From Acidobacteriota bacterium (lineage in GTDB: Bacteria > Acidobacteriota > Thermoanaerobaculia > Multivoradales > J023): 64,000 nucleotides of DNA. The translations under genes were made by a program, and so were the position numbers. Shown piece after piece: positions 29,259 to 46,630 of the stretch (positions are counted from its first letter, which is position 1; each line of letters opens with the position of its first letter). The notes under the pieces are model-generated. The model was not told the DNA's origin. It did not search any database and saw only the letters and a program-made list of their open reading frames with translations. Location: NCBI GenBank assembly GCA_029263315.1, contig JAJCXR010000035.1, forward strand, positions 375 to 64,374, written 5' to 3'.

Positions 29259-29260
29259 CC

Positions 29261-30463
29261 GTGGCTGGCGGTGTATCTAGAGACGACGGCGACTGGCGCC
29301 GGTTGACGGTGCCCCTGGCGGGGGGCTCGGTCGCCCTGCGGTTGCCGTCGAGTCTCTCGGACTCCACCCTGTTTCGCGAGATCGCCAGCCAGGACGTCAT
29401 CCGCAAGAAGCTGCTGGATGCCTTGGAGAAGCTGGAGCGCAGCACCGGCAGCAATCGGGAGCTATTGCTGTGTCCGCGCATGCAGTTGCACGCCACCTCG
29501 CGGGGCTTCCTCTCGATCAGCCACGACCTACGCAGATTCGCCGAGGATCTGGCCTCGTTTCATTCCAGCATCCCAGAATTGGACGAAGCACGGGGCACAG
29601 CCCAAACCTTGTTTCGGGGGCAGCTCGAGCAGGCGATCAACGAGGTGGAGGCATCGCATCAGGAGCTGTTCGAGTCCGACGACGACCTGGCGGAACGGTA
29701 TTTGCCCGAAGAGAAGCTGGTGGCCTTTCGCAAGAAGCTGGCCAAGAGCGCCGGCCGGGTGCGCACGGATTTGCAGAAGATCTTCGCCCATCTCTTGGCG
29801 CGGGACCCCCGCAACATCTTCCGGGCCCAGGGGGCCCGCAGTGAGCAGGAGATCCTTTTCCGCCAGTTCAAGCGGGAGGTGGCGGTCACCGAGCGCCTTT
29901 ACACCGCCGTACGACGGCTCGATACCTACATGCGTGGCGCCATCGTGCCGTCGGATCTGCTGCAATTGGTGGCCGACAAGATCGAGCGCCAAGGCAGTAT
30001 CGCTTGCCTCTTCGATCCCGACTACAAGATGTTCTTTGACGCCCTGGTCGAGGAGGCCCTGGAACGGTTGATTCCAGAGTTGCACGATATCCTCAATCTC
30101 GACGGTATTTGGTACGACGATTTCGAGAATATCGAGTCGAAGTCGCACATGCTGTCCAACGCTTGCCTGGTCTTCAAAGCCCTGCTCACCGAGCGTTGGG
30201 GCCTGCGGCAGGAGATCGAGGTTTCCAGCCTGACGTTCCATGAGTTGCAGGATACGCGGGTCGAGCCCTGGATGCGTTCCATGCTGGAGACCTTCAACAC
30301 CTATCGCCATCGCGAGATCGCCGCCAGCGTACGGCTGCTCGATCAAGTGTTGGTCGATTTGGAGGGTGCCCTCCTGCAGTGGGAGCAGGGCATCACCCGC
30401 CGCGCCTTTGCGCGGGCGGAGTGGCGTCAGGCGGTGCCGTTGCAGCGGCGGGGTGGTAGTTAG
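29261..30463 (+). CDS. Hypothetical protein (about 400 aa, helix-rich), coupled to the kinase
   Basis: Long ORF beginning 2 nt after the kinase stop; no motif recognised. Confidence 0.7.
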   Translation: MAGGVSRDDGDWRRLTVPLAGGSVALRLPSSLSDSTLFREIASQDVIRKKLLDALEKLERSTGSNRELLLCPRMQLHATSRGFLSISHDLRRFAEDLASFHSSIPELDEARGTAQTLFRGQLEQAINEVEASHQELFESDDDLAERYLPEEKLVAFRKKLAKSAGRVRTDLQKIFAHLLARDPRNIFRAQGARSEQEILFRQFKREVAVTERLYTAVRRLDTYMRGAIVPSDLLQLVADKIERQGSIACLFDPDYKMFFDALVEEALERLIPELHDILNLDGIWYDDFENIESKSHMLSNACLVFKALLTERWGLRQEIEVSSLTFHELQDTRVEPWMRSMLETFNTYRHREIAASVRLLDQVLVDLEGALLQWEQGITRRAFARAEWRQAVPLQRRGGS

Positions 30464-31826: not shown

Positions 31827-33173
31827 GTGTCCCAGCCGCCAGTGTCCACATCCAAGCCTGACCGCTCGGGTCGAGGCTCGTCCCTCGGTCGTCGCCTGCG
31901 GGCTTCCGACCAAACATCCTATGACGTAGCGACCGAGCGTCTGTCGACCCCGGATCAACTGGATCAGGTGATCCGGGTGGCGCGCTTTCCCCACTGGTTG
32001 GCCCTGTCGGCCCTGTTCTTGGTCTTGGCCGCCGCCGTTGCCGGCAGTATTCTGGTGCCGGTCCCGGTGACGGTGCGAGGTCAAGGCATCTTGATCAATG
32101 CCGAAGGCATTCTCAGTGTCACCTCCGATACGGAAGGCCGATTGTTGGGGCTTGATGTCGAGCCGGGGCGTTTGGTGCAAGAAGGCGAGCTGGTGGCACG
32201 CATCGATCAACCCCAGCTGCGCCAGGATTTGCTCAACCGTCAGGCGGAGCTGACCGAGCTGCGCCGTCGCCGCGACACCATCGAGGCCTTCCATCAGCGT
32301 ACCTCGACGACCCAACTGCAGACCATCGCCGACCGTCGGCGGGCCCTCGAGCAACGGCAAACCTTTGCCGAAGAGGATGCCCGTTTGATGCGGGAGCAAC
32401 TGCGGGACGAGGTCATGCTGCAAGGCCAGGGCATCCTCTCGGCGCGCCAGATCACCGAGTCCCGGCGCCGGGTCAACGAGGCGGAGCAGGAGCTGACCGC
32501 CATCGACAACGAGCTGCGGTTTTTCAGCCAGATGATGGCCGAGAACGAGTTGAAGCAGGAACGGGAGCTGCTCGATATCAGCCTCGAAATCAGCGATCTC
32601 GAGCGTATCGTCGACAGTCTCGACGAGCGGTACCGTCGCCACAGTGAGGTCAAGAGCCCCTACTCCGGACGGGTGGTGGAGCTCAGCGTCAACGAGGGCG
32701 AGATCGTCGGTCGCAACGCTGCTTTGTTCTCCCTCTTGCCCACCGGCGACGCGGCATCCCCCGGCTCCGATCAGCTCATCGCCGTGATCTACGTGCCACC
32801 CTCGGACGGCAAAAAAGTGTTGCAGGGCATGGATGTGCAACTCGAGCTGACACCGGTCAAACGGGAGGAGTTCGGTTTTATGCTGGGGCGGGTGGCGTCG
32901 GTGGCGGAGGTACCTTCGACCACCGACGGCATGATGCGAATCCTCAAGAACCGGCAGTTGGTCGATCAATTGTCGGGAACCCAAGCCCCCTTTGAGGTGC
33001 GGGTCGCCTTGCGCCGCGATGCGTCGACCCATACCGGTTTTAAATGGTCGTCCTCGGCGGGGCCGCAGGTGGAGATCAATATCGGAACCCTCTGTGTCGG
33101 TGATGTGATCACCCAACGGGAACGACCGATCAACCTGCTGATCCCAGCCCTGGGGCGTTTTTTCGATGACTGA
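31827..33173 (+). CDS. NHLM-type bacteriocin secretion membrane fusion protein (HlyD family)
   Basis: ERLSTPDQLDQVIRV, V.GQGIL, coiled coil, SPYSGRVVE, VKREEFGFMLGRV, GFKWSSSAGP, PINLLIP. Confidence 0.9.
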   Translation: MSQPPVSTSKPDRSGRGSSLGRRLRASDQTSYDVATERLSTPDQLDQVIRVARFPHWLALSALFLVLAAAVAGSILVPVPVTVRGQGILINAEGILSVTSDTEGRLLGLDVEPGRLVQEGELVARIDQPQLRQDLLNRQAELTELRRRRDTIEAFHQRTSTTQLQTIADRRRALEQRQTFAEEDARLMREQLRDEVMLQGQGILSARQITESRRRVNEAEQELTAIDNELRFFSQMMAENELKQERELLDISLEISDLERIVDSLDERYRRHSEVKSPYSGRVVELSVNEGEIVGRNAALFSLLPTGDAASPGSDQLIAVIYVPPSDGKKVLQGMDVQLELTPVKREEFGFMLGRVASVAEVPSTTDGMMRILKNRQLVDQLSGTQAPFEVRVALRRDASTHTGFKWSSSAGPQVEINIGTLCVGDVITQRERPINLLIPALGRFFDD

Positions 33174-35592
33174 GACGGCGCTCAAGGACATCGAAGGGCG
33201 ACCTTGGCGCCGGACATTGCGGGGCCTTTGGCAGGGTTGGCATGAGCACCTGCGGGGCTGGCGGAGCTGGGGTCCGTGGAACCGTCGGCGTCGCCGCACG
33301 CCCACCCTGCTGCAAATGCAGGAGACGGAATGTGGCGCCGCTTGCCTGGGGATCATCCTCGGTTATTACGGCCGCCATGAGCCCTTGGAAACGCTGCGCT
33401 ACGAGTGCGGGGTCACCCGCGACGGCGCCAAGGCGAGCAATGTTCTGCGGGCGGCTCGGGGTTACGGTTTGACCGCCAAGGGTTTTGCCCTCAATGCCAT
33501 GCAGGTGAGCCGTGCCCCTCTGCCCCTGGTATCCCTGTGGAATTTCACCCATTTTGTGGTGGTCGAAGGTTTCGTCGGCGGCAAGGTCTACCTCAATGAC
33601 CCCGCCACCGGGCCGCGCACCGTCTCGGAGCAGCGCTTCGTCGAGGGATACTCGGGGGTCTCCCTGGCCTTTCTTCCCGGCTCCGGATTCACCACCAACC
33701 GGCGGCCTCCGGGGGCCATGGCCAGCCTGCTGGAACGCACCCGCAGCTCGCGCCGGGCCTATGCCTTCATCATCCTGGCGAGCCTGATCTTCTTTTTGCC
33801 GGGCCTCATGATGCCGGCCTTTTTGCGCATTTACGTCGACTACTTCCTGGTCCAAGGGCAAGACCGCTGGCTGACCTTCATCCTTGCATCGATGCTGGCG
33901 ACGGCCCTCTTCACGGGGGTCCTGGTGTGGTTGCTCGACAACAGCCTGATCCGTTTCTACACCAAGCTCCAAACCCTGTGGTCGAGCCGCATGGTGTGGC
34001 GCATCCTGCGGCTGCCCCTGAGCTATTTCGACCAGCGCTCCGGTGGCGATTTGAGCACCCGTATCCAGTCCAATGGCATGCTGGCGTGGTTGGTGGCCGG
34101 GGAGCTGTCGAGCACCTTCCTCGGCCTGGCGACGCTGCTCGTCTATGCCCTCATCATGTGGCAATACGATGTCCTGCTGACCCTCATCGGGATGGGCTTC
34201 GCGGCGGTCAACTTGATCGCCTTCTGGATCGTCTCTCGCCGCCTCGAGGACATCAACCAGCAACTGCACCGCGATCGAGGCAAGACGGCGGGCATCTTGA
34301 TGCAAGGTCTGCGCTCCATCGATTCCTACCAAGCCAACGGCACCGAGGCGGTGTTTTTCAATCGCTGGGCCGGGCACCAGGCCAAGGTGGCCAACGCCCG
34401 CCAGTCCCTGGGCAAGACCCGCGCTCTGTTGACGGCCATTCCACTCTTGCTGGCCATGGTCAGCACCACCGCCATCCTCTTGGTGGGTGGCTTGCGCATC
34501 ATGGACGGCGCCCTGACGATCGGCATGTTGGTGGCCTTTCAAGGGCTGATGGTGGCGTTTTCGTTGCCGGTCAAGCAGGTCATCGACGCCAGCGCCAAGA
34601 TCCAAGAAGCCCAGGGCCTGTTGTATCGCCTCGACGATGTCATGCGGCAGAGTATCGACGCCGAGTTTGAGCAAGAAGAGACAACCCTGGAGCTGATGGG
34701 TCGCCAGCAGGGCGCCGCCGCCGTCGACGAGGGCTCGATGGAGGAGGCTCGCCGGCAGGAATCGGCGTTCGAGTCCGATTCCCTTACCACCGACTTCGCA
34801 TCCGAGGGGTTGTCCCCGGGCCGACACTCCGCCGAGCTGATGGTCCCGCGGCTACGGACCGCCAAACGCCGCAAGCTCGGTGGTGGGCTGGAGATGCGGC
34901 AGATTTGCTTCGGTTTCAATCCCCTGGACCCCCCTTGGATCGACGGCTTCGACCTCTCGGTGGCGCCCGGGGGGTGGGTCGCCTTGGTGGGCCCTTCGGG
35001 CAGCGGCAAGTCGACGTTGGGGCGCATGATCGCCGGCGTTGTCCGACCCTGGTCCGGGGATATCTGGATCGATGGCCAGAAGCTGGTGGAGATTCCGCGT
35101 CAGGTGCTGCGCAACACGGTGGCGGTGGTGGACCAAAACATCTCTCTCTTCGAAGGCACGGTGGCCGAGAACATCGCCATGTGGGATGCCACACTGCCGG
35201 AGGCGCGCATGGTCGAGGCGGCCCGCGACGCCGGGCTGCACGACGAGATCGCCGCCCGTCCGGGGGGTTACCGGGAGCTCATCGAAGAGGGTGGGCGCAA
35301 CTTTTCTGGCGGCGAGCGACAACGCATCGAAATCGCTCGGGCCCTGGTGGCCGAACCCTCTATCTTGTTGCTCGACGAAGCCACTAGCGCCCTCGATGCG
35401 CGGACGGAAAACGGCATCATTCGCAACTTGCGACGGCGGGGCCAGACCTGCGTGCTCATCGCCCATCGCTTGAGCACCATCCGCGATTGTGACGAGATCA
35501 TCGTCCTCGATGCCGGGCAAGTCGTCGAACGGGGCGACCATCGGACACTGATGGAACGCGACGGTGCCTATCGCAAGCTGGTGCATTCATGA
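33166..35592 (+). CDS. NHLM-type peptidase-containing ABC transporter (C39 + TMD + NBD)
   Basis: TPTLLQMQETECGAACL (catalytic Cys), WNFTHFVV (His), YLNDPA (Asp), GPSGSGKST, FSGGERQR, LLLDEATSALD. Confidence 0.93.
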   Translation: MTETALKDIEGRPWRRTLRGLWQGWHEHLRGWRSWGPWNRRRRRTPTLLQMQETECGAACLGIILGYYGRHEPLETLRYECGVTRDGAKASNVLRAARGYGLTAKGFALNAMQVSRAPLPLVSLWNFTHFVVVEGFVGGKVYLNDPATGPRTVSEQRFVEGYSGVSLAFLPGSGFTTNRRPPGAMASLLERTRSSRRAYAFIILASLIFFLPGLMMPAFLRIYVDYFLVQGQDRWLTFILASMLATALFTGVLVWLLDNSLIRFYTKLQTLWSSRMVWRILRLPLSYFDQRSGGDLSTRIQSNGMLAWLVAGELSSTFLGLATLLVYALIMWQYDVLLTLIGMGFAAVNLIAFWIVSRRLEDINQQLHRDRGKTAGILMQGLRSIDSYQANGTEAVFFNRWAGHQAKVANARQSLGKTRALLTAIPLLLAMVSTTAILLVGGLRIMDGALTIGMLVAFQGLMVAFSLPVKQVIDASAKIQEAQGLLYRLDDVMRQSIDAEFEQEETTLELMGRQQGAAAVDEGSMEEARRQESAFESDSLTTDFASEGLSPGRHSAELMVPRLRTAKRRKLGGGLEMRQICFGFNPLDPPWIDGFDLSVAPGGWVALVGPSGSGKSTLGRMIAGVVRPWSGDIWIDGQKLVEIPRQVLRNTVAVVDQNISLFEGTVAENIAMWDATLPEARMVEAARDAGLHDEIAARPGGYRELIEEGGRNFSGGERQRIEIARALVAEPSILLLDEATSALDARTENGIIRNLRRRGQTCVLIAHRLSTIRDCDEIIVLDAGQVVERGDHRTLMERDGAYRKLVHS

Positions 35593-38492
35593 CCTCACCG
35601 GGGAGCAAAGACGCGGCGGCCTCCGCCGTCGGCGGGCCAGAGCCGACCGCCGGCCTCACCGGGGCCACGCCGTTGCGGTTGCCACCGGGGGGTGCTTGTC
35701 GTCTGCAGCAGGGGAAGGTGGACCTCTATGCCGAGTTGCTCGACGGCGACGGCGCCATCCTGCGGCGTGAGCAACTCTTCGACCTCGATGCCGGAGCCCT
35801 GCTCTATGACTTGCCGACCTTGCCGGGTCTGCGCTGGATCGTCCTCGGACGGGGCCCGACACAACTCCAGCCGGTGGCGGTGGCGACCTTGACCCCGAGC
35901 CAAGTGCAGCCGTGGTTGGCGGGGCTGTGCGGCGTCCTGGAACGGACCTTCCGGGGTGTCGGCTTGATGCAACACCACCTCTCCGCCGGCGGTGCGCCCT
36001 TCGAGGCCGCTGCGGGGGAGCACGTCAGCTCCTCGGCGGGCATCACCTGGGCCCGTTTCGAAGGCTCGCCGCTGAGGTACCTCGATGACCTGGCGCTGGT
36101 GCCCGGTGGCGGCTCGGTTTACTTCCCGCTCAGCCCGGGGACTTGGCTGACCCCGACGGCCACCGTCGAGGTCGAACCCCTGGCTTTGGACGAGCCCCGT
36201 TTGGTCACCGCCTTGCCACAGGCCATGGAGCACTTTCATCGGGTCGTCGTGGAGTTGGTGAAGGAATCATGGGTCGCTGCCTTTCAGCAGGAGCAGCATC
36301 GATTGAGCCGTCGGCAACATTTGACTCAACGGGAGCGGCTCGCCGTCTTGTCACGCTTCAGTACGGTCATCGACGGCGGCGGTGAGTGGGACCTCGACGC
36401 CGGTGCCTCACCCCTGGTGCGGGTGTGCCAGCACATCGGTCGCCAGCTCGGGGTACAAGTGCGCCCCCCCGCCTTGTCGCCGGATAGGCGTCAGGGGGTG
36501 GCGGCGCAAGTGGAGGCGATCAGCCGTCGGTCGCGTCTACGGGCCAGGCAGGTGGTCTTGCGGGACGGCTGGTGGCGACGGGAAATGCGTCCCATGCTGG
36601 CCTTTCGGCGCGACTCCGGCAAGCCGGTGGCCTTGCTTCCCTGGCGGGGAGGACAAGCGGTTTGGGATCCGGCCAAGGCGGTTTGCATGGCCGACCAAGG
36701 GGGGCAGCGGCTGCGTAAAATCGATGCTGGCCAAGCCCAGGATATTGCGCCCCTCGCCTACTCTTTCTTCCGTGTCTTGCCCGATCGTCCCTTGCGCACC
36801 GCCGATCTGCTGGCCTTCGCCATGCGCTTCTGTCGACGAGACCTGGCGATGGCCTTGCTGTGCAGCCTGTGCGGTGTGGCGATGGCCCTCTTGGTGCCCA
36901 TCGCCACCGGCTGGATCGTCGACATCACCATCCCGGGGCACCAAACCTCGCAGCTGTTTTCCATCGCCCTGGCGTTGCTCATCGCCACCTTCGCCATTTT
37001 CAGCCTCAAGATCTGCGAAGACATCGCCCTGCTGCGTTTTGAGGGTCGCCTGGCAGAAACCCTACAGCCGGCCATCCTCGATCGTTTGTTGCGCCTGCCG
37101 AACACCTTCTTCCGGCGCTACTCCGCCGGCGATCTGGCGGAGCGGGTGCAGGCCATCGAGACGGTGGAGACCCGTCTCTCGGAGGGCTTGATGTCTTCCC
37201 TGCTCTCGGGTTGTCTGTCGTTGATCAACTTTGCCCTGCTGGTCTACATCTCGCCCAAGGCGGCCATGGTGGCGGCGTTGTTGTTGTTGGTTTTGATGAT
37301 TGGGTTTCTGCTGACGGCCCATCGTCAAAAGGCTTTCTGGCTGCGCATCCACCGCCTCGAGGGGCGGCTGGCGAGCATGATCTTGCAGATGATGCACGGT
37401 ATGCAGCGGGTGCGTTTGGCGGGTTCGGAAGATCGCATGTTCGTACGTTGGGGCAACCTGTCGATGAAGTTCCGCGATGTTCTCAATGCTTGCTACAACA
37501 GCGAGATGCTCTTCGGCGTCTTCAGCAAGAGTTTTCAAGTGCTGTGCTTCGCCATCCTCTTTGCGGTGATGGCTCCGATTGCTCGGGAGGGGTTGTCGAC
37601 GGGGCGTTTCCTCGCCTTCATCGCCGCCTTCACCATGGTGCTCACCGGTTTGGCCGAAATGGCCAGGGTGGTGATCAGCTCGATGGAGGTGGTGCCCGCC
37701 TTCGAACGTCTGCATCCCCTCTTGGACAGTGTTCCCGAGAGTGAAATGGAGCGGGCCCATCCCGGCGTGCTCAGCGGTCGTTTGGAGGTGCACCAGCTGA
37801 CCTTTCGCTATGGTGAGGGCATGCCTTGGGTCTTGCAGGGGTTGTGTTTGCAGGCCCGGGCGGGTGAGAGCATCGCCATCGTCGGTCCATCGGGATGCGG
37901 CAAATCGACCCTGTTGCGGCTCATCCTGGGTTTTGAGCATGCCACCGCCGGTAGTATCTACTTTGACGGCAAGGACGTGGCGGGTCTCGACTTGCGAGAG
38001 GTACGGCACCAGATCGGTGTGGTGTTGCAGAATGACCAATTGATGGAGGCCAGTCTCTTCCAGAACATTCGAGGCGACAAGGACATCTCCATGGACGAGG
38101 CTTGGCGGGCCGCCGAGATGTCGGGGATCGCCGACGACATCCGGGCCATGCCCTTGGGTATGCACACCGTCGTGTCCGCCCGGGGCGCCGACCTCTCCGG
38201 AGGTCAAGTGCAGCGTCTGCTCATCGCCCGCGCCCTGGCCTCCCGCCCCCGTATCCTGCTGCTCGACGAAGCCACCAGCGCCTTGGACAACTTGACCCAG
38301 TCCTTGGTCACCGACAGTCTCGATCATCTGCGGGTCACCCGCATCACCATCGCCCATCGCTTGAGCACCGTCCGCAAGGCGGACCGTATCTTTGTCATTC
38401 GACGGGGCCAGGTGGTGGAAGAAGGGACCTACCAGAGCCTCATGGACAAGCCGGCGTTCTTCGCTGAGTTGGTGCAACGGCAGCTCCACTGA
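35589..38492 (+). CDS. NHLM-type ABC transporter ATP-binding/permease subunit (no peptidase)
   Basis: Long N-terminal region, WWRREMRPMLAF, GKPVALLP, TMD, GPSGCGKST, LSGGQVQR, LDEATSALD. Confidence 0.9.
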   Translation: MTSPGSKDAAASAVGGPEPTAGLTGATPLRLPPGGACRLQQGKVDLYAELLDGDGAILRREQLFDLDAGALLYDLPTLPGLRWIVLGRGPTQLQPVAVATLTPSQVQPWLAGLCGVLERTFRGVGLMQHHLSAGGAPFEAAAGEHVSSSAGITWARFEGSPLRYLDDLALVPGGGSVYFPLSPGTWLTPTATVEVEPLALDEPRLVTALPQAMEHFHRVVVELVKESWVAAFQQEQHRLSRRQHLTQRERLAVLSRFSTVIDGGGEWDLDAGASPLVRVCQHIGRQLGVQVRPPALSPDRRQGVAAQVEAISRRSRLRARQVVLRDGWWRREMRPMLAFRRDSGKPVALLPWRGGQAVWDPAKAVCMADQGGQRLRKIDAGQAQDIAPLAYSFFRVLPDRPLRTADLLAFAMRFCRRDLAMALLCSLCGVAMALLVPIATGWIVDITIPGHQTSQLFSIALALLIATFAIFSLKICEDIALLRFEGRLAETLQPAILDRLLRLPNTFFRRYSAGDLAERVQAIETVETRLSEGLMSSLLSGCLSLINFALLVYISPKAAMVAALLLLVLMIGFLLTAHRQKAFWLRIHRLEGRLASMILQMMHGMQRVRLAGSEDRMFVRWGNLSMKFRDVLNACYNSEMLFGVFSKSFQVLCFAILFAVMAPIAREGLSTGRFLAFIAAFTMVLTGLAEMARVVISSMEVVPAFERLHPLLDSVPESEMERAHPGVLSGRLEVHQLTFRYGEGMPWVLQGLCLQARAGESIAIVGPSGCGKSTLLRLILGFEHATAGSIYFDGKDVAGLDLREVRHQIGVVLQNDQLMEASLFQNIRGDKDISMDEAWRAAEMSGIADDIRAMPLGMHTVVSARGADLSGGQVQRLLIARALASRPRILLLDEATSALDNLTQSLVTDSLDHLRVTRITIAHRLSTVRKADRIFVIRRGQVVEEGTYQSLMDKPAFFAELVQRQLH

Positions 38493-38513
38493 GGGTTGGC
38501 ACGAGGAGTCGAT

Positions 38514-39059
38514 ATGCAGAAGGTTCTCTACATCTTGGGTCAGCTCAACGACGCCGATGTCGAGTGGCTGAGCGACGAAGGGGAGCGGCGCAAGTACGTG
38601 CAAGGGGCCCACTTGATCGAGCAAGGGGTGGCCAACGACGACCTCTTCATCGTCCTGCAAGGTTTCGTCTCGGTGGTGGTGGATGGCCTGGGGGAGCTCC
38701 ATGTGCTCGGCAGTGGTGAAATCCTGGGGGAGATGTCATTGGTGGATTCGCGGCCCCCCTCGGCGACGGTGATCGCCCAGGGGGATGTCTATGTGTTGTC
38801 CTTATCCTTCACCACGTTGCGTCGGCAGGTGGAAACGGACCACGGCTTCGGCATGCGCTTTTACCGGGCCCTGGCGACTTTCCTGTCGCAGCGTCTACGC
38901 AACGAAAGGACGCCGGACTTCAACCGCGAGATCGGTCTTTTGGCGGATCAGGAACAGGACGGTGAGCTCGACGCCTATGTGCTCGACAATCTACAAGTTG
39001 CCGGTGCCCGTTTCGATCGTCTGCTCAAGAAGATGATGAGCGGCTCGGTCGACGGTTGA
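38514..39059 (+). CDS. Cyclic nucleotide-binding domain protein, bacteriocin-system type
   Basis: MQKVLYILGQLNDADVEWL, GEILGEMSLVDSRPPSATV, FYRALATFLSQRLR, AGARFDRLL. Confidence 0.88.
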   Translation: MQKVLYILGQLNDADVEWLSDEGERRKYVQGAHLIEQGVANDDLFIVLQGFVSVVVDGLGELHVLGSGEILGEMSLVDSRPPSATVIAQGDVYVLSLSFTTLRRQVETDHGFGMRFYRALATFLSQRLRNERTPDFNREIGLLADQEQDGELDAYVLDNLQVAGARFDRLLKKMMSGSVDG

Positions 39060-39079
39060 AGCCTGAGGAGGACGCTGAC

Positions 39080-40120
39080 ATGCGATATCTGAAGCTGGCT
39101 GGAGGCATCTTGCTCTGCGCCATGGCCACAAGCGGTAACCTGTGGGCGGCGCAGTGGCAGGAGCTCGGCATCGACGCCACCTCCACCTATGCCCAGTGGT
39201 ACCGTCCCGATACGGTGCCCGCCGAGGAAGCGGCCCCTTTGGTGATTTTCTTGCACGGCGCCGGGTCGACACCGGAAGCTTGGATGCCGCTGTTGCAGGA
39301 CCATGCCGAGACGGCGGGTTTTGTCCTGGCGCTGCCCAAGTCGATCTCCGACTTTGGTTGGGGGGTGGGTCGAGATCACGAGACGCTGCGTCATCTCATC
39401 GCGGAGCTGTCCCAGGAGACTTCCATCGAGCGCCGTCGGGTGAGCTTGGCGGGGCATTCCTCCGGCGGCGCTTTCGCCTACGTGGCAGCCCTCGGCGGAC
39501 GGTTGCGCATCGCTTCGGTCTTTGCCCTCGCGGCGCCGTTTCGCACCGTCCTCGAAGTGGCCGATACCACCCACACGCCAACCCTCCGCCTGTACTACGG
39601 CACCGAAGATCCGAACTATCGGATTCTGCCACCCCTCGGGGACATGCTCGATCGTCTGGCCGTGACCTGGCAGGTCGAGATAGCTCCCGGCTTCGGTCAT
39701 AGCTCGTGGCCGGCCACCACCTTGGGCGATGGCTTCCACTTCCTGCTGCAGTACGAGCTGACCGGGCCCTGTGAGCCCTCGCCGCATCGACTGTGCTTGC
39801 TGGACGGGCGCTTTGCGGTGGAGCTATCGTGGTCGGACCATCAGGGCAACCATGGGGTCGGCTCGAGGGTCGAGCAGCAGACCACCGACTCCGGCTTGCT
39901 TTGGTTTTTTGGCCAGGCCAACTGGGAGTTGCTGGTGAAGGTGCTCGACGGCTGCGGCGTCAATGGCCATTATTGGGTCTTCGCCGCCGCCGCCACCGAC
40001 GTGGAGTACGAGTTGCGGGTCACCGATCTGGCCACCGGTCTCGAAGCGAGCTACCTCAATTCTTTGGGGCAAGCCGCGTCGGCGGTCAATGACACGGGGG
40101 CGTTTGCTAGCTGTCCGTGA
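39080..40120 (+). CDS. Secreted alpha/beta hydrolase with Acidobacteria-type C-terminal domain
   Basis: Signal peptide, LVIFLHGAG, GHSSGG nucleophile elbow, YYGTED, GFGH; C-terminus LCLLDGRF...LWFF...ELLVKVLDGC...WVFAAAATDVEY...AFASCP. Confidence 0.8.
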   Translation: MRYLKLAGGILLCAMATSGNLWAAQWQELGIDATSTYAQWYRPDTVPAEEAAPLVIFLHGAGSTPEAWMPLLQDHAETAGFVLALPKSISDFGWGVGRDHETLRHLIAELSQETSIERRRVSLAGHSSGGAFAYVAALGGRLRIASVFALAAPFRTVLEVADTTHTPTLRLYYGTEDPNYRILPPLGDMLDRLAVTWQVEIAPGFGHSSWPATTLGDGFHFLLQYELTGPCEPSPHRLCLLDGRFAVELSWSDHQGNHGVGSRVEQQTTDSGLLWFFGQANWELLVKVLDGCGVNGHYWVFAAAATDVEYELRVTDLATGLEASYLNSLGQAASAVNDTGAFASCP

Positions 40121-40305
40121 TTTGAAGCCGTCGTCAAAGACTGGGACTCCGAATCCGGGGCCTGGCAGTCGCGATACATTTCGGCAGTGGAGACACATCG
40201 TCGCCAATTTGGCACTGTCGAGCTCCCGACGCCGCGTTGTAGGGCAGGACGTTTTGACCTGGCGGGACGTCCATGTCGGCGATCTGGTCGCCGTGGGAGG
40301 TCTCC

Positions 40306-41565
40306 ATGCAAGACAACTGGCAACCCCTCTTACAGGGGGACATGGCGGAGGACGCTTGGCGGGCGATCCGCGCCATCGCGGCGGATCTTGGGCCACCGGA
40401 CCGGGCCTTTGCGGACAATGCGCGCTGGGGTTTGGCCGGCGGAGCCGCCGGCACGGCGTTGTTCTTTGCCTATTTGGCCGAGGTCAGTGAGGACTCGCAG
40501 CATCGGGATTTGGCCTGTGAGCATCTGGAAACGGCCCTCGACGGGGCTGGCCAGGCCCAAGCCTTCGGGCTCTGGGACGGCCTGTTGGGGGTGTCCTGGG
40601 TTTTTGACCACTTGGCCGGTCGTCTCTTCGAGGTGGAGGACGACGAAGATGGGAGCGATATCGACCGTGCCTTGACCAATCTTCTGCAAAGCGCTCCACA
40701 GTATGAGAATTACGACTTGATCCAAGGTCTGGCCGGTTTTGGCGTCGCTTGCCTGGAGGGGCTCCCCCGTCCGGGGGCTCGCCAGGCCTTGGACTTGGTG
40801 CTCGACCATCTGGTGGGTGGCCAACTGCAACTCGACGGCGGCGTCACCTGGCTCACGCCGCCGGATTTGTTGCCACCCTGGCAGCGGCAGCTGGCGCCGG
40901 AGGGTTACTACAACCTCGGCGTAGCCCATGGCGTGGCGGCGGTCCTGACCCTTCTCGCCCGCTGTGTCCAGGCATCGATCCGCCGCCAAGAGCTTCTGCC
41001 GCTGCTCGATGAGCTGGTGCAGTGGATCCTGGCACAGCGCTCGGAGTTGGGATTCCCCAGCTGGATTCCCAAAGATCGGCCGGTCGTCGAAGGGGCTCGG
41101 CTGGCCTGGTGCTACGGTGATCCGGGGGTCGCCGCGGCCCTCCTGGCGGCGGCCCAAGCCACCGGTCGTCACAGCTGGGCGGCGATGGCCGAGGAGGTGG
41201 CACACCAGGCCGCCGGTCGCGATCCGGCCCTGGCCCGAGTCCAGGACGCCGGACTGTGCCATGGCTCCGCCGGAGTGGCTCATCTTTTCCATCGCCTCTA
41301 CCGGGGCACCGGCAATGCCGACCTGGCGGAGGCTGCCCGACATTGGTTCCTCCACACTTTGGAGATGCGGCGTCCGGGGGCGGGTTTTGGAGGATTCCAA
41401 GCCTGGACGCTGCCACGGGGGCAACTCGAGGGCGAGTTGCAATGGGTTGACGATCCCGGCCTGCTCACCGGCTCGGCGGGGATCGGCCTCAGCTTGCTGG
41501 CGGCGGTGACCTCGCAGGAGCCACGCTGGGACCGCGCCCTGATGGTGTCGACATCGGCCCCCTAG
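40306..41565 (+). CDS. lanC: Class I lanthipeptide cyclase
   Basis: GLAGGAAG, YDLIQGLAG, YNLGVAHG, AWCYGDPG, GLCHGSAG, GLLTGSAG; GGAGG RBS. Confidence 0.95.
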   Translation: MQDNWQPLLQGDMAEDAWRAIRAIAADLGPPDRAFADNARWGLAGGAAGTALFFAYLAEVSEDSQHRDLACEHLETALDGAGQAQAFGLWDGLLGVSWVFDHLAGRLFEVEDDEDGSDIDRALTNLLQSAPQYENYDLIQGLAGFGVACLEGLPRPGARQALDLVLDHLVGGQLQLDGGVTWLTPPDLLPPWQRQLAPEGYYNLGVAHGVAAVLTLLARCVQASIRRQELLPLLDELVQWILAQRSELGFPSWIPKDRPVVEGARLAWCYGDPGVAAALLAAAQATGRHSWAAMAEEVAHQAAGRDPALARVQDAGLCHGSAGVAHLFHRLYRGTGNADLAEAARHWFLHTLEMRRPGAGFGGFQAWTLPRGQLEGELQWVDDPGLLTGSAGIGLSLLAAVTSQEPRWDRALMVSTSAP

Positions 41566-41655
41566 AGACCGCACCAGGCTCGGCTTCTGCGGCCTTGGAC
41601 GAGTTGGCCAAGGCCTGAGAGGAAGCGAAACGGTGGGAGAGAATCTCGCCGGAGA

Positions 41656-41701
41656 CGAGTGGTTGAAACCACTCGCTAGGATGTTTCGTCCCTCCGGGAC
41701 G
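41656..41701. repeat. Bipartite REP-like element family B (hairpin + CGTCCCTCCGGGACG)
   Basis: CGAGTGGTT-GA-AACCACTCG stem, 11-nt gap, then a second palindrome; same layout as 52365-52424. Confidence 0.6.
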
Positions 41702-41834
41702 CCGGAAAGCGGCATGCAGGGATAGTCCCTAATTCCTGTCCCGCTTCGGCGCTCCTAATCTGGAGAAAAAGAATTGGATTGTGACCACGCCAAGGGGCCT
41801 CCCTGGGCACCGTTTCGGTATTTCAGGACGGAAA

Positions 41835-44800
41835 CTAGGCTAGCCGTTCGGCCCGCTGCCGAGCCCGCTGGGACAGCCGGTGGCGGTGCAAGAAGTCGTA
41901 GAGCACCGCTTCGTGGGCCCTGGCGTTGGCTGGAATCAAGCGGTTGACGGTCATGTGGGCCAAGCTAGACCCCAAGCTACCTAGCGGTATGGCCAGCTGC
42001 CGCGATTGAGCCAGGGCTCGCAGGGCCGCCATCGGTTGTTTCAAGTGGTGATCGCGTTGCCGTAGGACGAGCAAGGACGTTTCCAGGGGTGACAAGCTCG
42101 CCGCCTTGGCCTGTGTTGTTGGCTGGCGGACCGTGTCGAGCTTCCGCAGAGCGGCGCTGATCAGTTGTTTGTGCTGGCGTAGCTTCTGCGCCATGCCTCG
42201 GCGCATGCGTTTGTCGATCCCCATCTCGTCGGCGAAACCCTGGCGCATGGTGTCGATGCAGGCGATGTGGGAGGCCAGGTCGTCGGCGAAGAGCCCGGCC
42301 AGCAGCCCGTTGAGGCTCGCCAAGGTGGCCAGCCAACGATGGGTGGCGCCAACATCCCCCCGCAAGACGGGCAGCATGGCGAGCACGGCGACGCTGTCGT
42401 GGTGGAAGATCTGCTCACAGAGGTCGAGCCCGGGCCGGCCCCCATAGCGTTCGATTTCCGGCTCGTAGGTGGCGAGCTGTAGATTCCAAATGCAGCCTTG
42501 ATCGAGGAGCCGCGTCGCCAGGGCGGACAAACGTTGTTGGAGATCCCAGCGCAAGCCCTCGTCGGGCACTTGGAAGCGCACCCGGAGGTGGAATTCGGGA
42601 TCGCTATAACGAATGAAAAACCAGCGACGGATCTCCTGCCCATAGTTTTGCACCAGTTGGCGGATGGGACCTTGCAGGATGTCGTCGGCGGTGGTCGAGC
42701 CGGTGTAGAGCTTGGCGAAAAGCCACTGGGAGCCTGGCAAATATTTTTCGCCGAGGTCTTGCCCCGTCAAGGGACCCCCGGTGAGAATGGAGGAGCTGCC
42801 GACGGCCAGGGGGCTGCTCTGCGCCCCGGCTTCGACCTCGGGGGCCGGCCGCGGCCGACGACGGACCAAGGGCAGGATGAGCTCGTGGGCATAGCGTCCT
42901 TCAGGCCCTTGCAGCACCAAATTGTTACCCTGTTGGAGGAATTCCAGGAGACGAAAGCTGCGACGCCGTTGCACGATACTGAGGAGAGCCTCCACCGACA
43001 GGCGGTGGTCGAAGTCGACAAACAGCTCGTTGTCGCCGTCGGCCAGCAGCACGCGACGGGGAAGCTCCCGCTCCTGACACCAGCGGTCCAGGGCCGGTTG
43101 CCGTCGGTGGCTTTCAAGAGTCGCCCAAGGACGGATCTCCTCTCCGCTCACCACCCACTCCGCCGGCCTCAAGATGGTGCGACCATACACTACCCTCGGC
43201 AGCTGGGAGAGTTGGTCGAGGGGTCCCCAGGACCAAGCCAAGCCGCCGCAAACCCCCTGGGATTGCAGCGAGCAGAGAAAGCGATAGATACCTAGGCCAC
43301 GCAGGGAGAAATTATGGGCGCTGGTGAGGCGGGGGATGACCCGTTTGCCGAGCCGTTGGGACCACAGGATCACCTCGTCGCCGACGACGCTGACCCGAAG
43401 ATCGTCGAGTGGGATTTGATGCTCCTGCGGGCAGCCGCTGTGGCCGAGGAACGGGATCTCATATCTGCGCAACACCGGGCGCAGCAGAATGTTGCCGATG
43501 CGACCTTCCGGCAAGTGCACGATTTCGGCGTAAACGGCGTCGGGCCGGTGCGCCTCCTCCCGTTGCAGATGGGCCCGCACGTGCTCTGCCAAGGCGGCGT
43601 CGGCGTGGCAGAAGCGACCCAACAACGCCGCCCCCGACGGGCCGCTGGCCCCCTTGAGCAACAACTGGAACTGACCTTGGTCGACGGCCTCGGAGGACGA
43701 CGCGAGCAGAGTGCAGATGATCTGCATGGCGTCCGGCAGCGGCTTCAACGGAATGTCGTCCAGGCGATCCAGATCATCGTCCGTCAGTCGCAGCACCTTC
43801 TCTCCCCGACGGGCGCCGGTGAAGAGCTTCTGGGTGATTAGCCCTTGGGCCTGACCCCAGGGGACCTCCCGGTTGCCCGGGCGGGACGGAAAGTGGATGC
43901 CTTGGAGCAGTGGAGCGTCGTGACTGCCCAGGCCAGCTGTGGGGGAGAAACCGATGCCCACTTCTTCGTCGAGCGCTTCCACCAGGGGCACCGCACGGCC
44001 CGGTTCATAACGTCGCCTGAAGGCCTCGCGAAAACTGGCGAAAGGGTCGAAAATGGTGTCCCCCCGCAGTCTATGCAGACAGGCCACCGCCGCCATCGCC
44101 TCCTCCACGACCTGGGAGTTGAGCTGTAGATCCGGAGCCGGCTTGCCAGCGTCGACCTGGAAAAGGCGAGGCAAGGCGATCTCCGGCCCCAAGGGCTCGA
44201 GCTGGCGTCCCAGGCGACGATAGACCTGGCCGACTTCGACGATCGAGCTTCGAGAATCCTGCTGTTTCCCCTTCGCGGGCGTCAGATCCAGCCGCCTCAA
44301 GGCATCCCGAATCTCGGCCAAGCCAGCGGCGATGGGCGCCGTTTTTGGAATGGGGGCGAGATGCTCGATGAAGTCGTGCACCGGCTCGGTTCCGGTGACC
44401 CCGGGGCCCAGATTGGAGACCAGAAGTTGAGTGTCCACCATTTCATGGACGAGCTCCATGGCTTCGTCGAGGCTGATCGCTTCGACGTCCGTAGGTTGCT
44501 CGGCATCGTTCGCCGGCTGCTGACGATGTTGTTGATCGAAATCGACGATGCAGCGGGCGATGTCGAGCACGGTGGCGCCCCCCCGCGCCGCCCGCAACGC
44601 CGCCGAAAGGTAGGGATCATCGCCCACCGCCACCAGATGGTACGACCGCTGCTGACCGTCGAGACGGCCTTCCGCATAACGCCAACGGCCGGCGGTGAAG
44701 TAGAGGCTGCTGTTGGGGGAATAGCGGAGGGCGGCCCGCACCTCCGGATCCGTCTCGAGGTGGTGGGCCAAGCGGAAGAGGTAGTCCATGTCGAGGCGCG

Positions 44801-45242
44801 TATGACGACGGTTGGCGTGACGGGGGGCAAGCTTTAGGTGGGTGCCATTGCCTAGCCGCCCCAGGGAGCCCCCGGCGAACAGGCCAAACGGCGTGGAGCG
44901 GGTCATCATGCGTACGACGTAGCGGGCCAGGGAGCTGCGCAGCCGCGCCGCCCGCTTGGCCGGCGTCGAAGCATCGAGATGCCCTAAACCTTCGATCAAT
45001 GACGGCGAGGCCACGAACAGAGCTTCGGCGATTTCCGGCCGTTGCGCCATTGCGAAGAGATGATCTTCCGATGGGTCAGTTCCTGTGTCGGACGAGGCTG
45101 CCTGGGCGTCGAGCCATGCTAGATGCTCGTCGAAGGGCAGGAGGGGAGAGCGCAGGACGAAGAAGTCTTCCGCCCGGTGATGCGGAAGGCTGCGCCTGGG
45201 GACGGTTCGGGTGGGTGCGTTGGTGGTGTCGATTGTCATCAC
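41835..45242 (-). CDS. lanB: Class I lanthipeptide dehydratase, full length (glutamylation + elimination domains)
   Basis: FFVLRSPLLPF, IAEALFVASPSL, RSTPFGLFAG, LGRF, PRLTSAHN, WLFAKLY, WFFIRYSDPEFHLRVRF, YEPEIERYGG, HMTVNRL; 1135 aa. Confidence 0.95.
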   Translation of the reverse strand: MMTIDTTNAPTRTVPRRSLPHHRAEDFFVLRSPLLPFDEHLAWLDAQAASSDTGTDPSEDHLFAMAQRPEIAEALFVASPSLIEGLGHLDASTPAKRAARLRSSLARYVVRMMTRSTPFGLFAGGSLGRLGNGTHLKLAPRHANRRHTRLDMDYLFRLAHHLETDPEVRAALRYSPNSSLYFTAGRWRYAEGRLDGQQRSYHLVAVGDDPYLSAALRAARGGATVLDIARCIVDFDQQHRQQPANDAEQPTDVEAISLDEAMELVHEMVDTQLLVSNLGPGVTGTEPVHDFIEHLAPIPKTAPIAAGLAEIRDALRRLDLTPAKGKQQDSRSSIVEVGQVYRRLGRQLEPLGPEIALPRLFQVDAGKPAPDLQLNSQVVEEAMAAVACLHRLRGDTIFDPFASFREAFRRRYEPGRAVPLVEALDEEVGIGFSPTAGLGSHDAPLLQGIHFPSRPGNREVPWGQAQGLITQKLFTGARRGEKVLRLTDDDLDRLDDIPLKPLPDAMQIICTLLASSSEAVDQGQFQLLLKGASGPSGAALLGRFCHADAALAEHVRAHLQREEAHRPDAVYAEIVHLPEGRIGNILLRPVLRRYEIPFLGHSGCPQEHQIPLDDLRVSVVGDEVILWSQRLGKRVIPRLTSAHNFSLRGLGIYRFLCSLQSQGVCGGLAWSWGPLDQLSQLPRVVYGRTILRPAEWVVSGEEIRPWATLESHRRQPALDRWCQERELPRRVLLADGDNELFVDFDHRLSVEALLSIVQRRRSFRLLEFLQQGNNLVLQGPEGRYAHELILPLVRRRPRPAPEVEAGAQSSPLAVGSSSILTGGPLTGQDLGEKYLPGSQWLFAKLYTGSTTADDILQGPIRQLVQNYGQEIRRWFFIRYSDPEFHLRVRFQVPDEGLRWDLQQRLSALATRLLDQGCIWNLQLATYEPEIERYGGRPGLDLCEQIFHHDSVAVLAMLPVLRGDVGATHRWLATLASLNGLLAGLFADDLASHIACIDTMRQGFADEMGIDKRMRRGMAQKLRQHKQLISAALRKLDTVRQPTTQAKAASLSPLETSLLVLRQRDHHLKQPMAALRALAQSRQLAIPLGSLGSSLAHMTVNRLIPANARAHEAVLYDFLHRHRLSQRARQRAERLA

Positions 45243-45505
45243 ACCCTACAACGCGGAGAAATGTGCCGCGCAGTGCCGTTTTTGTGGGGTTGTTTTAGCC
45301 ATCGCAGGTACTTTCGCAGGCAGCCCTATCGGCGGTCTTCGTCGGCGAGGTGGGTGCGGCTGGCATCTGAGTCCGGGGGGCGATGGCACCTTCTGCGAGA
45401 TCCGTGCGCGTTGATAGATGACAGGGCTTCCCTAGAGGCCCGCTGCACTCTCTCCCATCGAAGGGAGACATCTTGAATGGAGACACCGGAAGACATGGAG
45501 GGGCC

Positions 45506-45697
45506 ATGAAGAAAACCTTGCGTCGATTGCGCTTGGAACGTGAAACGCTCCGCAACCTCACCCCCGAGCACTTGGGACAAGTCGTCGGCGGCACTGGGGG
45601 GACTATCGATGACACCGACACCCGTCACAACTCTTGCAACTTGGCCGAATCCAAGCCTATTTCCGTTTGCCAGAGCTGCCTCCCCTTTGTTTGCTAA
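45506..45697 (+). CDS. lanA: Lanthipeptide precursor 1 (29-aa GG leader, 34-aa core)
   Basis: MKKTLRRLRLERETLRNLTPEHLGQVVGG|TGGTIDDTDTRHNSCNLAESKPISVCQSCLPFVC; GGAG RBS; adjacent to lanB. Confidence 0.9.
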   Translation: MKKTLRRLRLERETLRNLTPEHLGQVVGGTGGTIDDTDTRHNSCNLAESKPISVCQSCLPFVC

Positions 45698-45757
45698 GCC
45701 CTGGTCCCCGTGAGACGTTAGCGTGAGGTTCGAAACGACCGAAACTAGGAAAACACC

Positions 45758-45943
45758 ATGAAGAAAACACTACGCCGTTTGCGTTTGGAGCGTGAGACGC
45801 TTCGCAACTTGACACCGCAGGATCTGGAGCAGGTGGTCGGTGGCAATCCCTTGGACGATGGCGATACGCGCTACAACTCCTGTGATCTGGCGATCACACG
45901 GCCACGCTTGGTGTGCTGCAGCCTCTTGCCCCTTGGCTGCTAG
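45758..45943 (+). CDS. lanA: Lanthipeptide precursor 2 (29-aa GG leader, 32-aa core)
   Basis: MKKTLRRLRLERETLRNLTPQDLEQVVGG|NPLDDGDTRYNSCDLAITRPRLVCCSLLPLGC. Confidence 0.9.
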   Translation: MKKTLRRLRLERETLRNLTPQDLEQVVGGNPLDDGDTRYNSCDLAITRPRLVCCSLLPLGC

Positions 45944-46012: not shown

Positions 46013-46630
46013 TCAGCCCAGCTCGCGCACCAGAAAGGCCCGCGCCAAAGCCCAATCGCGGGCCACGGTGCGACGGGAGCAACCGATGGCCAAGGCCGTT
46101 TCATCGAGGGTCAAGCCGGCGAAGCAATGCAAATGCACCACCAAGGCGAGCCGCGGCTCATGCTCTGAGAGTCGTCCCAGGGCCAGTTGCAGCCCCATGG
46201 GGTCCATGTCCTCTTTGAGGGCCGCCGGTAACTGATCGAGGAACTCGTAACGCACCACCTCCGCCTTGCGACGATCCGCCATCTTGGTGCGGGCGTGGTC
46301 GAGCAGGATGCGCCGCATGGTGACGGCGGCAATGGCGAAGAAATGTTTACGATTGCGCCAATTGACGTGCCGCTGGGCGCGCAGCCGCAAGTACGCCTCG
46401 TGCACCAAGGCGCGGGGCTCCAACGTGTGGTCCGTACGTTCGTTGCGCAGGTAGCCCCGAGCCTGTTGGTTGAGCTCCCGGTAGACAAGCTCGAGCAATT
46501 GGTTTTCCTCGAGATGGGAGCTGCCTTTCCAAGATTGCAGGAGATGGGTGATCTCACCCCGCTCCTCTTGGCTCAGGGGACAGGCCGGGTGATGGGGTGC
46601 GGAGGCGTAGGCTGGAGGCTCGATCTGCAT
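46013..46630 (-). CDS. ECF sigma factor, STK-associated (TIGR02999-like)
   Basis: LVYREL...YLRNERTDHTLEPRALVHEAYLRL, NRKHFFAIAAVTMRRILLDHAR, RTVARDWALARAFL. Confidence 0.92.
   Translation of the reverse strand: MQIEPPAYASAPHHPACPLSQEERGEITHLLQSWKGSSHLEENQLLELVYRELNQQARGYLRNERTDHTLEPRALVHEAYLRLRAQRHVNWRNRKHFFAIAAVTMRRILLDHARTKMADRRKAEVVRYEFLDQLPAALKEDMDPMGLQLALGRLSEHEPRLALVVHLHCFAGLTLDETALAIGCSRRTVARDWALARAFLVRELG

Follow-up and report, generated by a model that had tools for sequence, protein, structure and literature searches.

The window analyzed here is a stretch of 64,000 nucleotides (contig JAJCXR010000035.1, assembly GCA_029263315.1) from a soil-type Acidobacterium of the class Thermoanaerobaculia. 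It carries a class I lanthipeptide cluster, composed of genes for a LanB dehydratase, a LanC cyclase and two precursor peptides (LanA1 and LanA2), that adjoins a four-gene, leader-cutting exporter of the NHLM type. This exporter comprises an HlyD-type membrane-fusion protein, two ATP-binding cassette (ABC) proteins, the first of which (ABC1) bears a C39 peptidase domain, and a small protein resembling cyclic nucleotide monophosphate (cNMP)-binding domains. A full NHLM module thus stands in place of the usual single peptidase-containing ABC transporter (PCAT), an arrangement found only in the window, in its syntenic ortholog locus (L097) and in a Kouleothrix genome (L035). The pairing is rare and lineage-specific, and it is built from well-known parts following a known logic. 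All nine genes named in an initial annotation of this DNA (HlyD, C39-ABC, second ABC, cNMP protein, hydrolase, LanC, LanB and two double-glycine precursors) lie where that annotation had placed them (Table 1), and its suggestion of a Thermoanaerobaculia host proves right as well.

The exporter genes and the hydrolase gene behind them are tightly arranged on one strand. HlyD and ABC1 overlap by 8 nt, ABC1 and the second ABC gene (ABC2) by 4 nt, and the cNMP-like and hydrolase genes by 4 nt, with a gap of 3 nt between ABC2 and the cNMP-like gene. According to the listing of open reading frames (ORFs), lanC starts on the same strand 152 nt past the hydrolase. lanB converges on lanC, and the lanA pair diverges from lanB across 265 nt.

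Table 1. Genes of the NHLM exporter, the LanBC cluster and the adjoining regulator pair, with their positions in the window.
Feature	Coordinates	Strand	Family matches or other basis
Membrane-fusion protein of HlyD type, NHLM exporter, 448 aa	31827-33173	+	TIGR03794, Pfam HlyD_3
ABC1, C39 peptidase/permease/ATPase, 808 aa	33166-35592	+	TIGR03796; Peptidase_C39, ABC_membrane, ABC_tran
ABC2, permease/ATPase without active peptidase, 967 aa	35589-38492	+	TIGR03797
Single-domain cNMP-binding-like protein, 187-aa open frame	38496-39059	+	PF00027
Secreted alpha/beta hydrolase	39056-40120	+	Abhydrolase_2, Abhydrolase_6
LanC lanthionine cyclase, 430 aa	40273-41565	+	PF05147
Full-length LanB dehydratase, 1135 aa	41835-45242	-	Lant_dehydr_N and Lant_dehydr_C
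LanA1 precursor, 63 aa	45507-45697	+	NF038153, translation
LanA2 precursor, 61 aa	45758-45943	+	NF038153, translation
ECF sigma factor, probable cluster regulator	46013-46630	-	PF07638 Sigma70_ECF, E 7e-43
TPR-repeat Ser/Thr protein kinase of 940 aa, partner of the ECF sigma factor	46554-49376	-	Pkinase E 5e-44, TPR_12/TPR_10

The biosynthetic half of the locus is complete. LanB matches PF04738 (Lant_dehydr_N) over positions 1-649 of 649 (E 3e-162) and PF14028 (Lant_dehydr_C) over positions 1-254 of 255 (E 1e-58), and its best solved relatives are MibB (5EHK) and NisB. LanC matches PF05147 (E 4e-43), and the motifs GVAHG, WCYGDPG and CHGSAG are visible in its alignment to 8BYK. Going by the residues of NisC, we take these motifs to supply the acid/base His and the zinc ligands (Cys and Cys-His). 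A full LanB, a stand-alone LanC and adjacent precursors with Ser/Thr- and Cys-containing cores place the cluster in class I.

Both precursors carry a leader of 29 residues that ends in VVGG. LanA1 consists of the leader MKKTLRRLRLERETLRNLTPEHLGQVVGG and the 34-residue core TGGTIDDTDTRHNSCNLAESKPISVCQSCLPFVC, with 8 Ser/Thr and 4 Cys; LanA2 consists of the leader MKKTLRRLRLERETLRNLTPQDLEQVVGG and the 32-residue core NPLDDGDTRYNSCDLAITRPRLVCCSLLPLGC, with 4 Ser/Thr and 4 Cys. The first 20 leader residues are identical in the two peptides, and their Cys, Ser and Thr positions align. Against NF038153 (lant_leader_L1a) they score 23.4 and 23.0 bits, a narrow margin over the cut-off of 22; in a whole-genome search the values are 24.4 and 23.5 bits, and no other L1a leader of the genome is detected by this model. 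The leader segment LRLERETLRNL fits the motif LxLxRx5L, where Arg replaces the Lys of the published LxLxKx5L, and the residues preceding the double glycine include Val at -4 and Leu at -7, -12 and -15. The cores share the pattern DDxDTRxNSC...C, which was not seen in other LanB loci. Within the lanthipeptide half, the core sequence alone is new, and the rest is an ordinary member of a widespread and described kind.

Class I LanBC clusters combining double-glycine leaders with C39 exporters were described in 2014 from myxobacteria and Mycobacterium (Singh & Sareen, PMC3951391). In 2020, class I clusters of Bacteroidetes with double-glycine leaders, C39 exporters and the LxLxKx5L motif followed, among them the pinensin family I_17 (Walker et al., PMC7268733), and the viridisin cluster of Thalassomonas is a further case of a double-glycine class I cluster with a C39 exporter (PMC9680876). 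The statement in the initial annotation that class I LanBC systems typically use a simple LanT, often with LanP, is therefore outdated; among the LanB loci collected here, 33 of 80 have a C39-ABC gene nearby. With these clusters the window shares separate full-length LanB and LanC proteins, an LxLx(K/R)x5L leader ending in a double glycine, Cys-rich hypervariable cores, often several precursors, and leader removal that is predicted to be performed by a C39 peptidase. It differs from them in its exporter. Theirs is a single bifunctional PCAT, whereas the LanBC cluster of the window itself holds no PCAT, LanT or LanP and is adjoined instead by the NHLM module, with its two different ABC proteins, HlyD and cNMP-like protein. 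Arg in place of the motif Lys is a further difference.

The assignment of the exporter rests on three equivalog models, all matched above their cut-offs by adjacent genes. HlyD scores 321 bits on TIGR03794 (cut-off 156), ABC1 925 bits on TIGR03796 (cut-off 853), and ABC2 777 bits on TIGR03797 (cut-off 709) over residues 274-966. Among the relatives, ABC1 is the lowest-scoring true member of TIGR03796, at 921-925 bits, compared with 934-1113 bits for the other above-cut-off matches. The best solved match of its C39 domain is LahT150 (6MPZ, 128 bits), with which the motifs QMQETECGAAC, THFVVV and NDPA align, keeping the Gln, Cys, His and Asp residues. LahT150 is a broad-specificity double-glycine protease that needs only the last ~13 leader residues, cuts short lanthipeptide leaders and accepts cyclised lanthipeptide cores (Bobeica et al. 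2019, PMC6363468).

The definition of the NHLM cassette placed it next to NHLP, Nif11, TOMM and LanM systems (Haft et al. 2010, PMC2887384). The window module resembles that cassette in having the three transport genes in the same order with a cNMP-domain protein attached, and in combining an ABC1 whose C39 domain is predicted from its sequence to be active with an ABC2 whose C39-like domain is inactive. It departs from the definition on several counts: the adjoining precursors have a short class I leader and not an NHLP or Nif11 leader, the cNMP protein has one domain instead of two and falls below the TIGR03896 cut-off, and ABC1 belongs to a distinct clade. The initial annotation had tied such cassettes to NHLP/Nif11 precursors with YcaO or LanM enzymes, a view that proves too narrow, as the NHLM exporter also co-occurs with many graspetide groups (PMC13097080). 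No description of LanB and LanC beside the three-gene NHLM cassette was found in the papers searched.

Two other known systems bear comparison. LahT of Lachnospiraceae C6A11 and the prochlorosin-type class II systems pair export with LanM and Nif11-type leaders, whereas the window pairs it with a tRNA-dependent LanB and a LanC. With HlyB/HlyD/TolC the window shares an HlyD-family adaptor and an ABC protein, here ABC2, whose C39-like domain is inactive. Unlike that system, it has two different ABC subunits, one with a protease; its substrate would be a small peptide with an N-terminal leader and not one with a C-terminal signal; and its cluster contains no gene for an outer-membrane factor.

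ABC2 begins with an N-terminal extension of ~270 aa (35589-36410, residues 1-274) that is conserved in nine other NHLM ABC2 proteins (L035, L097-L103 and L106). No Pfam match was obtained for residues 1-414 and no NCBIfam match for residues 1-274. An AF2 model of the ABC2 N-terminus (pLDDT 80) contains two beta-barrels and a 60-residue helix, followed by the C39-like domain. In Foldseek searches with the model, weak matches to regulatory subunits of protein kinase A (PKA) and to CRP-family proteins were returned (E 1e-3 to 5e-2), and the C39-like domain matched that of HlyB (3ZUA). As a lead only, the model suggests that the extension could be a tandem of degenerate cNMP-binding-like domains.

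The separate cNMP-like protein probably starts at ATG 38514, which gives 181 aa, and matches PF00027 (E 3e-16). It reaches 117 bits on TIGR03896, below the cut-off of 161, covering model positions 139-316 of 317, which is the second half only. The checks proposed in the initial annotation came out positive for Lant_dehydr_N/C, PF05147 and the three transport models, and negative for this one. In place of the two-domain protein described by the model, a single domain is present here and likewise in all clade members and in L035. The gene follows ABC2 directly on its 3' side in all seven clade loci read, and its product is the most conserved of the module (72% mean column identity, in an alignment that includes the Kouleothrix protein). 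Its phosphate-binding cassette reads GEMSLVDSRPPSATV. In this cassette, Pro occupies the position of the phosphate-binding Arg of PKA-type domains, with an Arg two residues earlier. Because Pro replaces that Arg, the ligand may be something other than cAMP or cGMP.

Relatives of LanB are widespread. Of 41 relatives, 15 have a homolog at 41-50% identity, and a search with an 11-sequence alignment collected 80 LanB loci, where a search with the single LanB protein had given none. These loci span Acidobacteriota, Myxococcota, Planctomycetota, Actinomycetota, Chloroflexota, Bacteroidota and other phyla. Counted by tblastn with the window proteins, neighbours include a C39-ABC gene within 10 kb in the 33 loci mentioned above, LanC in 48 of 80 and an HlyD-like gene in five of 80. 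Two separate ABC genes together with a cNMP protein occur in one of the 80, namely L035. The LanB-adjacent exporters of the relatives score ~620 bits on TIGR03796, below its cut-off. When L097 and the 80 LanB loci were scanned with a regular expression, 34 of these 81 gave candidate precursors, some of them chance matches. In many of the 34, precursors follow the pattern MKK..KL.L.KETLRNL....VVGG, and their Cys-rich cores are hypervariable. A separate observation concerns a genome of the same family (G016:C44:72415-92595, partly L063), in which one contig encodes both a LanB accompanied by a PCAT of its own and, ~15 kb away, a true NHLM ABC1 (1083 bits). These genes may form a looser island of the same ingredients for making peptides that are synthesized ribosomally and modified post-translationally (RiPPs).

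Relatives of the exporter form a different set. The nearest ABC1 homologs make up a clade at 59-81% identity, beyond which identity falls to ~50%. Seven contexts from this clade were read: L097, at 81% ABC1 identity, and six others at 61-67%. L097 is a syntenic ortholog locus with the order kinase, ORF without assignment, AhpC-like gene, HlyD, ABC1, ABC2, cNMP, hydrolase, BNR-repeat gene, LanC and LanB. The four-gene module of HlyD, ABC1, ABC2 and cNMP protein is retained in the other six, where ABC2 measures 950-987 aa and the cNMP protein 179-189 aa. LanBC and the NHLM module are accordingly found together in one of the seven nearest module relatives and in one of the 80 LanB loci.

The latter case is L035, from a metagenome-assembled genome of Kouleothrix sp. 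(Chloroflexota), where LanC, two LanAs, LanB, cNMP, HlyD, ABC1 and ABC2 are encoded on one strand. Here the transport proteins score 269 bits on TIGR03794, 1111 on TIGR03796 and 951 on TIGR03797. The single-domain cNMP protein, encoded upstream of HlyD, scores 154 bits on TIGR03896. The LanA leaders, KKLALNKETVQEL...AGG, are of the L1a type with NF038153 scores of 35 and 34 bits. In a maximum-likelihood tree of 69 ABC1 and PCAT sequences, a fully supported split divides the NHLM family from the LanB-adjacent PCATs. The window ABC1 and its L097 ortholog fall inside a 22-member clade of mostly stand-alone modules, and the Kouleothrix ABC1 falls in another NHLM subclade, near the second NHLM cassette of the window genome. 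Since the two ABC1 proteins belong to different subclades, this tree indicates that the juxtaposition of LanBC and NHLM genes arose at least twice.

The rest of the genome, an assembly of ~8 Mb, holds further export and modification genes. Contig C21 carries a class II cluster with LanM, a PCAT, an ECF sigma factor and a kinase with TPR repeats. On contig C30 (38500-45300, L105), a LanB-like gene of 903 aa with the N-terminal dehydratase domain only adjoins a GAF-domain HlyD and a PCAT, forming a RiPP locus distinct from that of the window. The second, canonical NHLM cassette lies on contig C53 (129500-138100, L106) and includes an OEP outer-membrane factor, HlyD, an ABC1 of 1082 bits and an ABC2 whose open frame spans 1007 aa; next comes an AAA_16/TPR/zinc-ribbon protein, and a cNMP gene is missing from the cassette. 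No NHLP (TIGR03793) or Nif11 (TIGR03798) precursor was detected in the genome, the NHLP search being equally empty in control genomes. Export of the LanAs in trans by one of the other two PCATs was considered and judged less likely because each adjoins its own RiPP enzyme, LanM on C21 and the LanB-like protein on C30.

The balance of these observations tips modestly toward a functional connection, in which the resident exporter would serve the adjoining LanBC island and its LahT-like C39 domain would cut after VVGG. Several features argue for such a use of the module. The parts are intact: all pass the curated cut-offs except for the cNMP-like protein, and the catalytic motifs of the C39 domain and of LanC are in place. 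Family scans of positions 27-50 kb of the window detected no further transporter or protease beyond the NHLM module, so that the cluster has no other gene for export or leader processing. The genes from HlyD to the hydrolase are tightly arranged with lanC 152 nt on, the arrangement is conserved in L097 and recurs in Kouleothrix, the other PCATs have enzymes of their own, and NHLP or Nif11 substrates were not detected in the genome. The predicted cut after VVGG draws on the analogy with LahT150, as that enzyme tolerates short leaders and cyclised cores. The initial annotation had proposed a hybrid pathway at this locus; a functional link remains plausible given the Kouleothrix recurrence and the lack of another transporter or protease, but the evidence speaks against a conserved system.

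The proposed sequence of events begins with the core peptides. Judging by the intact domains and motifs, LanB would glutamylate core Ser/Thr residues and eliminate the glutamate, and LanC would then close up to four thioether rings. Besides the class I recognition motif LxLxRx5L, the 29-residue leader would offer a C39 site whose positions -4, -7, -12 and -15 are hydrophobic, and there the C39 domain of ABC1 is predicted to cut after VVGG. The presumed ABC1/ABC2 pair would export the product together with HlyD and an outer-membrane factor encoded elsewhere. More speculatively, the free cNMP-like protein and the cyclic nucleotide-binding-like N-terminus of ABC2 may gate export. In evolutionary terms, the LanBC island would have come to lie beside an exporter that mostly stands alone in relatives, and this exporter would replace the usual PCAT of LanB kin. 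The same replacement would have arisen independently in Kouleothrix. The broader claim, that the NHLM exporter became a dedicated class I lanthipeptide exporter on at least two independent occasions (one in Thermoanaerobaculia, one in Chloroflexota), displacing the PCAT, is tentative and falls slightly short of an even chance.

The main alternative is that the adjacency is incidental, the module being a general exporter with other double-glycine substrates and the LanAs being cut in trans or only opportunistically here. This is the less probable reading, although a considerable body of evidence is on its side and weighs against a dedicated coupling. Around six of the seven clade modules, neither LanB nor LanC lies within 10 kb, and the neighbours are varied and unrelated; because these modules stand alone, the module probably has a life of its own and other substrates too. 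The L097 junction is split by the BNR-repeat gene, which lies on the opposite strand between the hydrolase and lanC, and operon continuity is therefore not conserved. No ABC exporter was found in the flanks of 47 of the 80 LanB loci, many of them truncated, and processing in trans appears common. The window genome itself holds two further PCATs and a second NHLM cassette, and no OEP/TolC outer-membrane factor gene was found between positions 27 and 50 kb of the window. Across 201 genomes of the class, TIGR03797 is matched in 36 and a LanB homolog is present in 27, with both in eight; at the genome level the two are not significantly associated (odds ratio 2.2, p 0.105). LanB and an NHLM ABC2 are adjacent in this genome and in none of the 200 others. 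The expectation of the initial annotation that the cassette and LanBC would co-occur in related genomes thus largely fails. Against a merely incidental adjacency, rough arithmetic gives ~0.003 as the chance that, in an 8-Mb genome with two cassettes, LanBC lies no more than 5 kb from either, and a second, independent juxtaposition exists in Kouleothrix. The company of their own maturases kept by the other PCATs, and the empty searches for canonical NHLP and Nif11 substrates, also speak for the functional connection.

That the lanthipeptide genes are silent or in decay, a remnant without a product, is very improbable. The NF038153 scores barely above the cut-off would fit such decay, but the reading frames run uninterrupted over their full length, the catalytic motifs are preserved, the precursors share the identical start of their leaders and the aligned Cys, Ser and Thr positions, and the cluster is conserved in L097.

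The role of the secreted hydrolase in the pathway is doubtful. Its probable start is ATG 39080, its N-terminus resembles a signal peptide, and its translation contains the serine-hydrolase motif GHSSG. Besides the matches to Abhydrolase_2 and Abhydrolase_6, there is a weak match to esterases of the polyhydroxybutyrate (PHB)-depolymerase type. The enzyme could trim the peptide outside the cytoplasm after double-glycine cleavage, or remove or add an ester on the exported peptide, and this is improbable, if somewhat less so than a decayed cluster. The position of the gene between the cNMP-like gene and lanC, its overlap with the cNMP stop codon, the signal peptide and motif, and its conservation in L097 are in its favour. 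On the other side, no copy occurs in the 80 LanB loci, the Kouleothrix locus included, or in the six stand-alone modules; the family matches are weak and point to esterase or PHB-depolymerase activities only; and the C-terminal domain recurs as a common module across many secreted proteins of the genome. This domain of ~115 aa (39764-40120, residues ~237-354; CEPSPHRLCLLDGRF...VKVLDGC...TDVEY...) has no family assignment. More than 10 paralogous copies at 41-57% identity were seen on contigs C38, C15, C3, C48, C33, C18 and C22.

Beyond the lanA pair lie the extracytoplasmic function (ECF) sigma factor and the Ser/Thr kinase with tetratricopeptide repeats (TPR), which probably regulate the LanBC cluster, and past these, on the downstream side, argG and argH. 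A like pair of sigma factor (PF07638) and TPR kinase, encoded in the window at 46013-49376, also adjoins LanB in loci of two other genomes (L023 and L034), and within the window genome another flanks the LanM-PCAT cluster of contig C21 (L104, 11813-15878). Kinase homologs occur within 10 kb of LanB in 12 of the 80 loci. The pair is a candidate for a recurrent regulator of lanthipeptide clusters in these phyla.

Upstream of the module lie a Ser/Thr kinase, an ORF without family match and a TPR-thioredoxin-like gene. The ORF between the two other genes (29165-30463, 432 aa) has no Pfam match, and L097 carries at the same position an ORF of 395 aa that is likewise without one; the two are of similar size and are likened by size and position alone. 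A recent horizontal transfer of the region was considered and finds no signal in composition, GC content being flat at 0.62-0.66 across 22-60 kb. A scan for promoters and terminators found sites at a frequency not above that of shuffled sequence.

The general view of lanthipeptide biosynthesis and PCAT-type export is unchanged because every part of the locus belongs to a described family. To call it the strongest candidate for an undescribed system, as the initial annotation did, was an overstatement. If the coupling of the LanBC cluster to the exporter is real, the substrate range of NHLM exporters would widen to short class I leaders, and a LahT150-like protease domain could be used for L1a leader removal in the heterologous production of cryptic Gram-negative lanthipeptides. 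The two peptides would also be among the first class I lanthipeptides from Thermoanaerobaculia. If, furthermore, the exporter has been recruited as a dedicated one, the short L1a leader would be a genuine NHLM substrate, the release of class I lanthipeptides could be gated by a nucleotide signal, and the DDxDTRxNSC...C product would represent a new lanthipeptide scaffold from an uncultured lineage.

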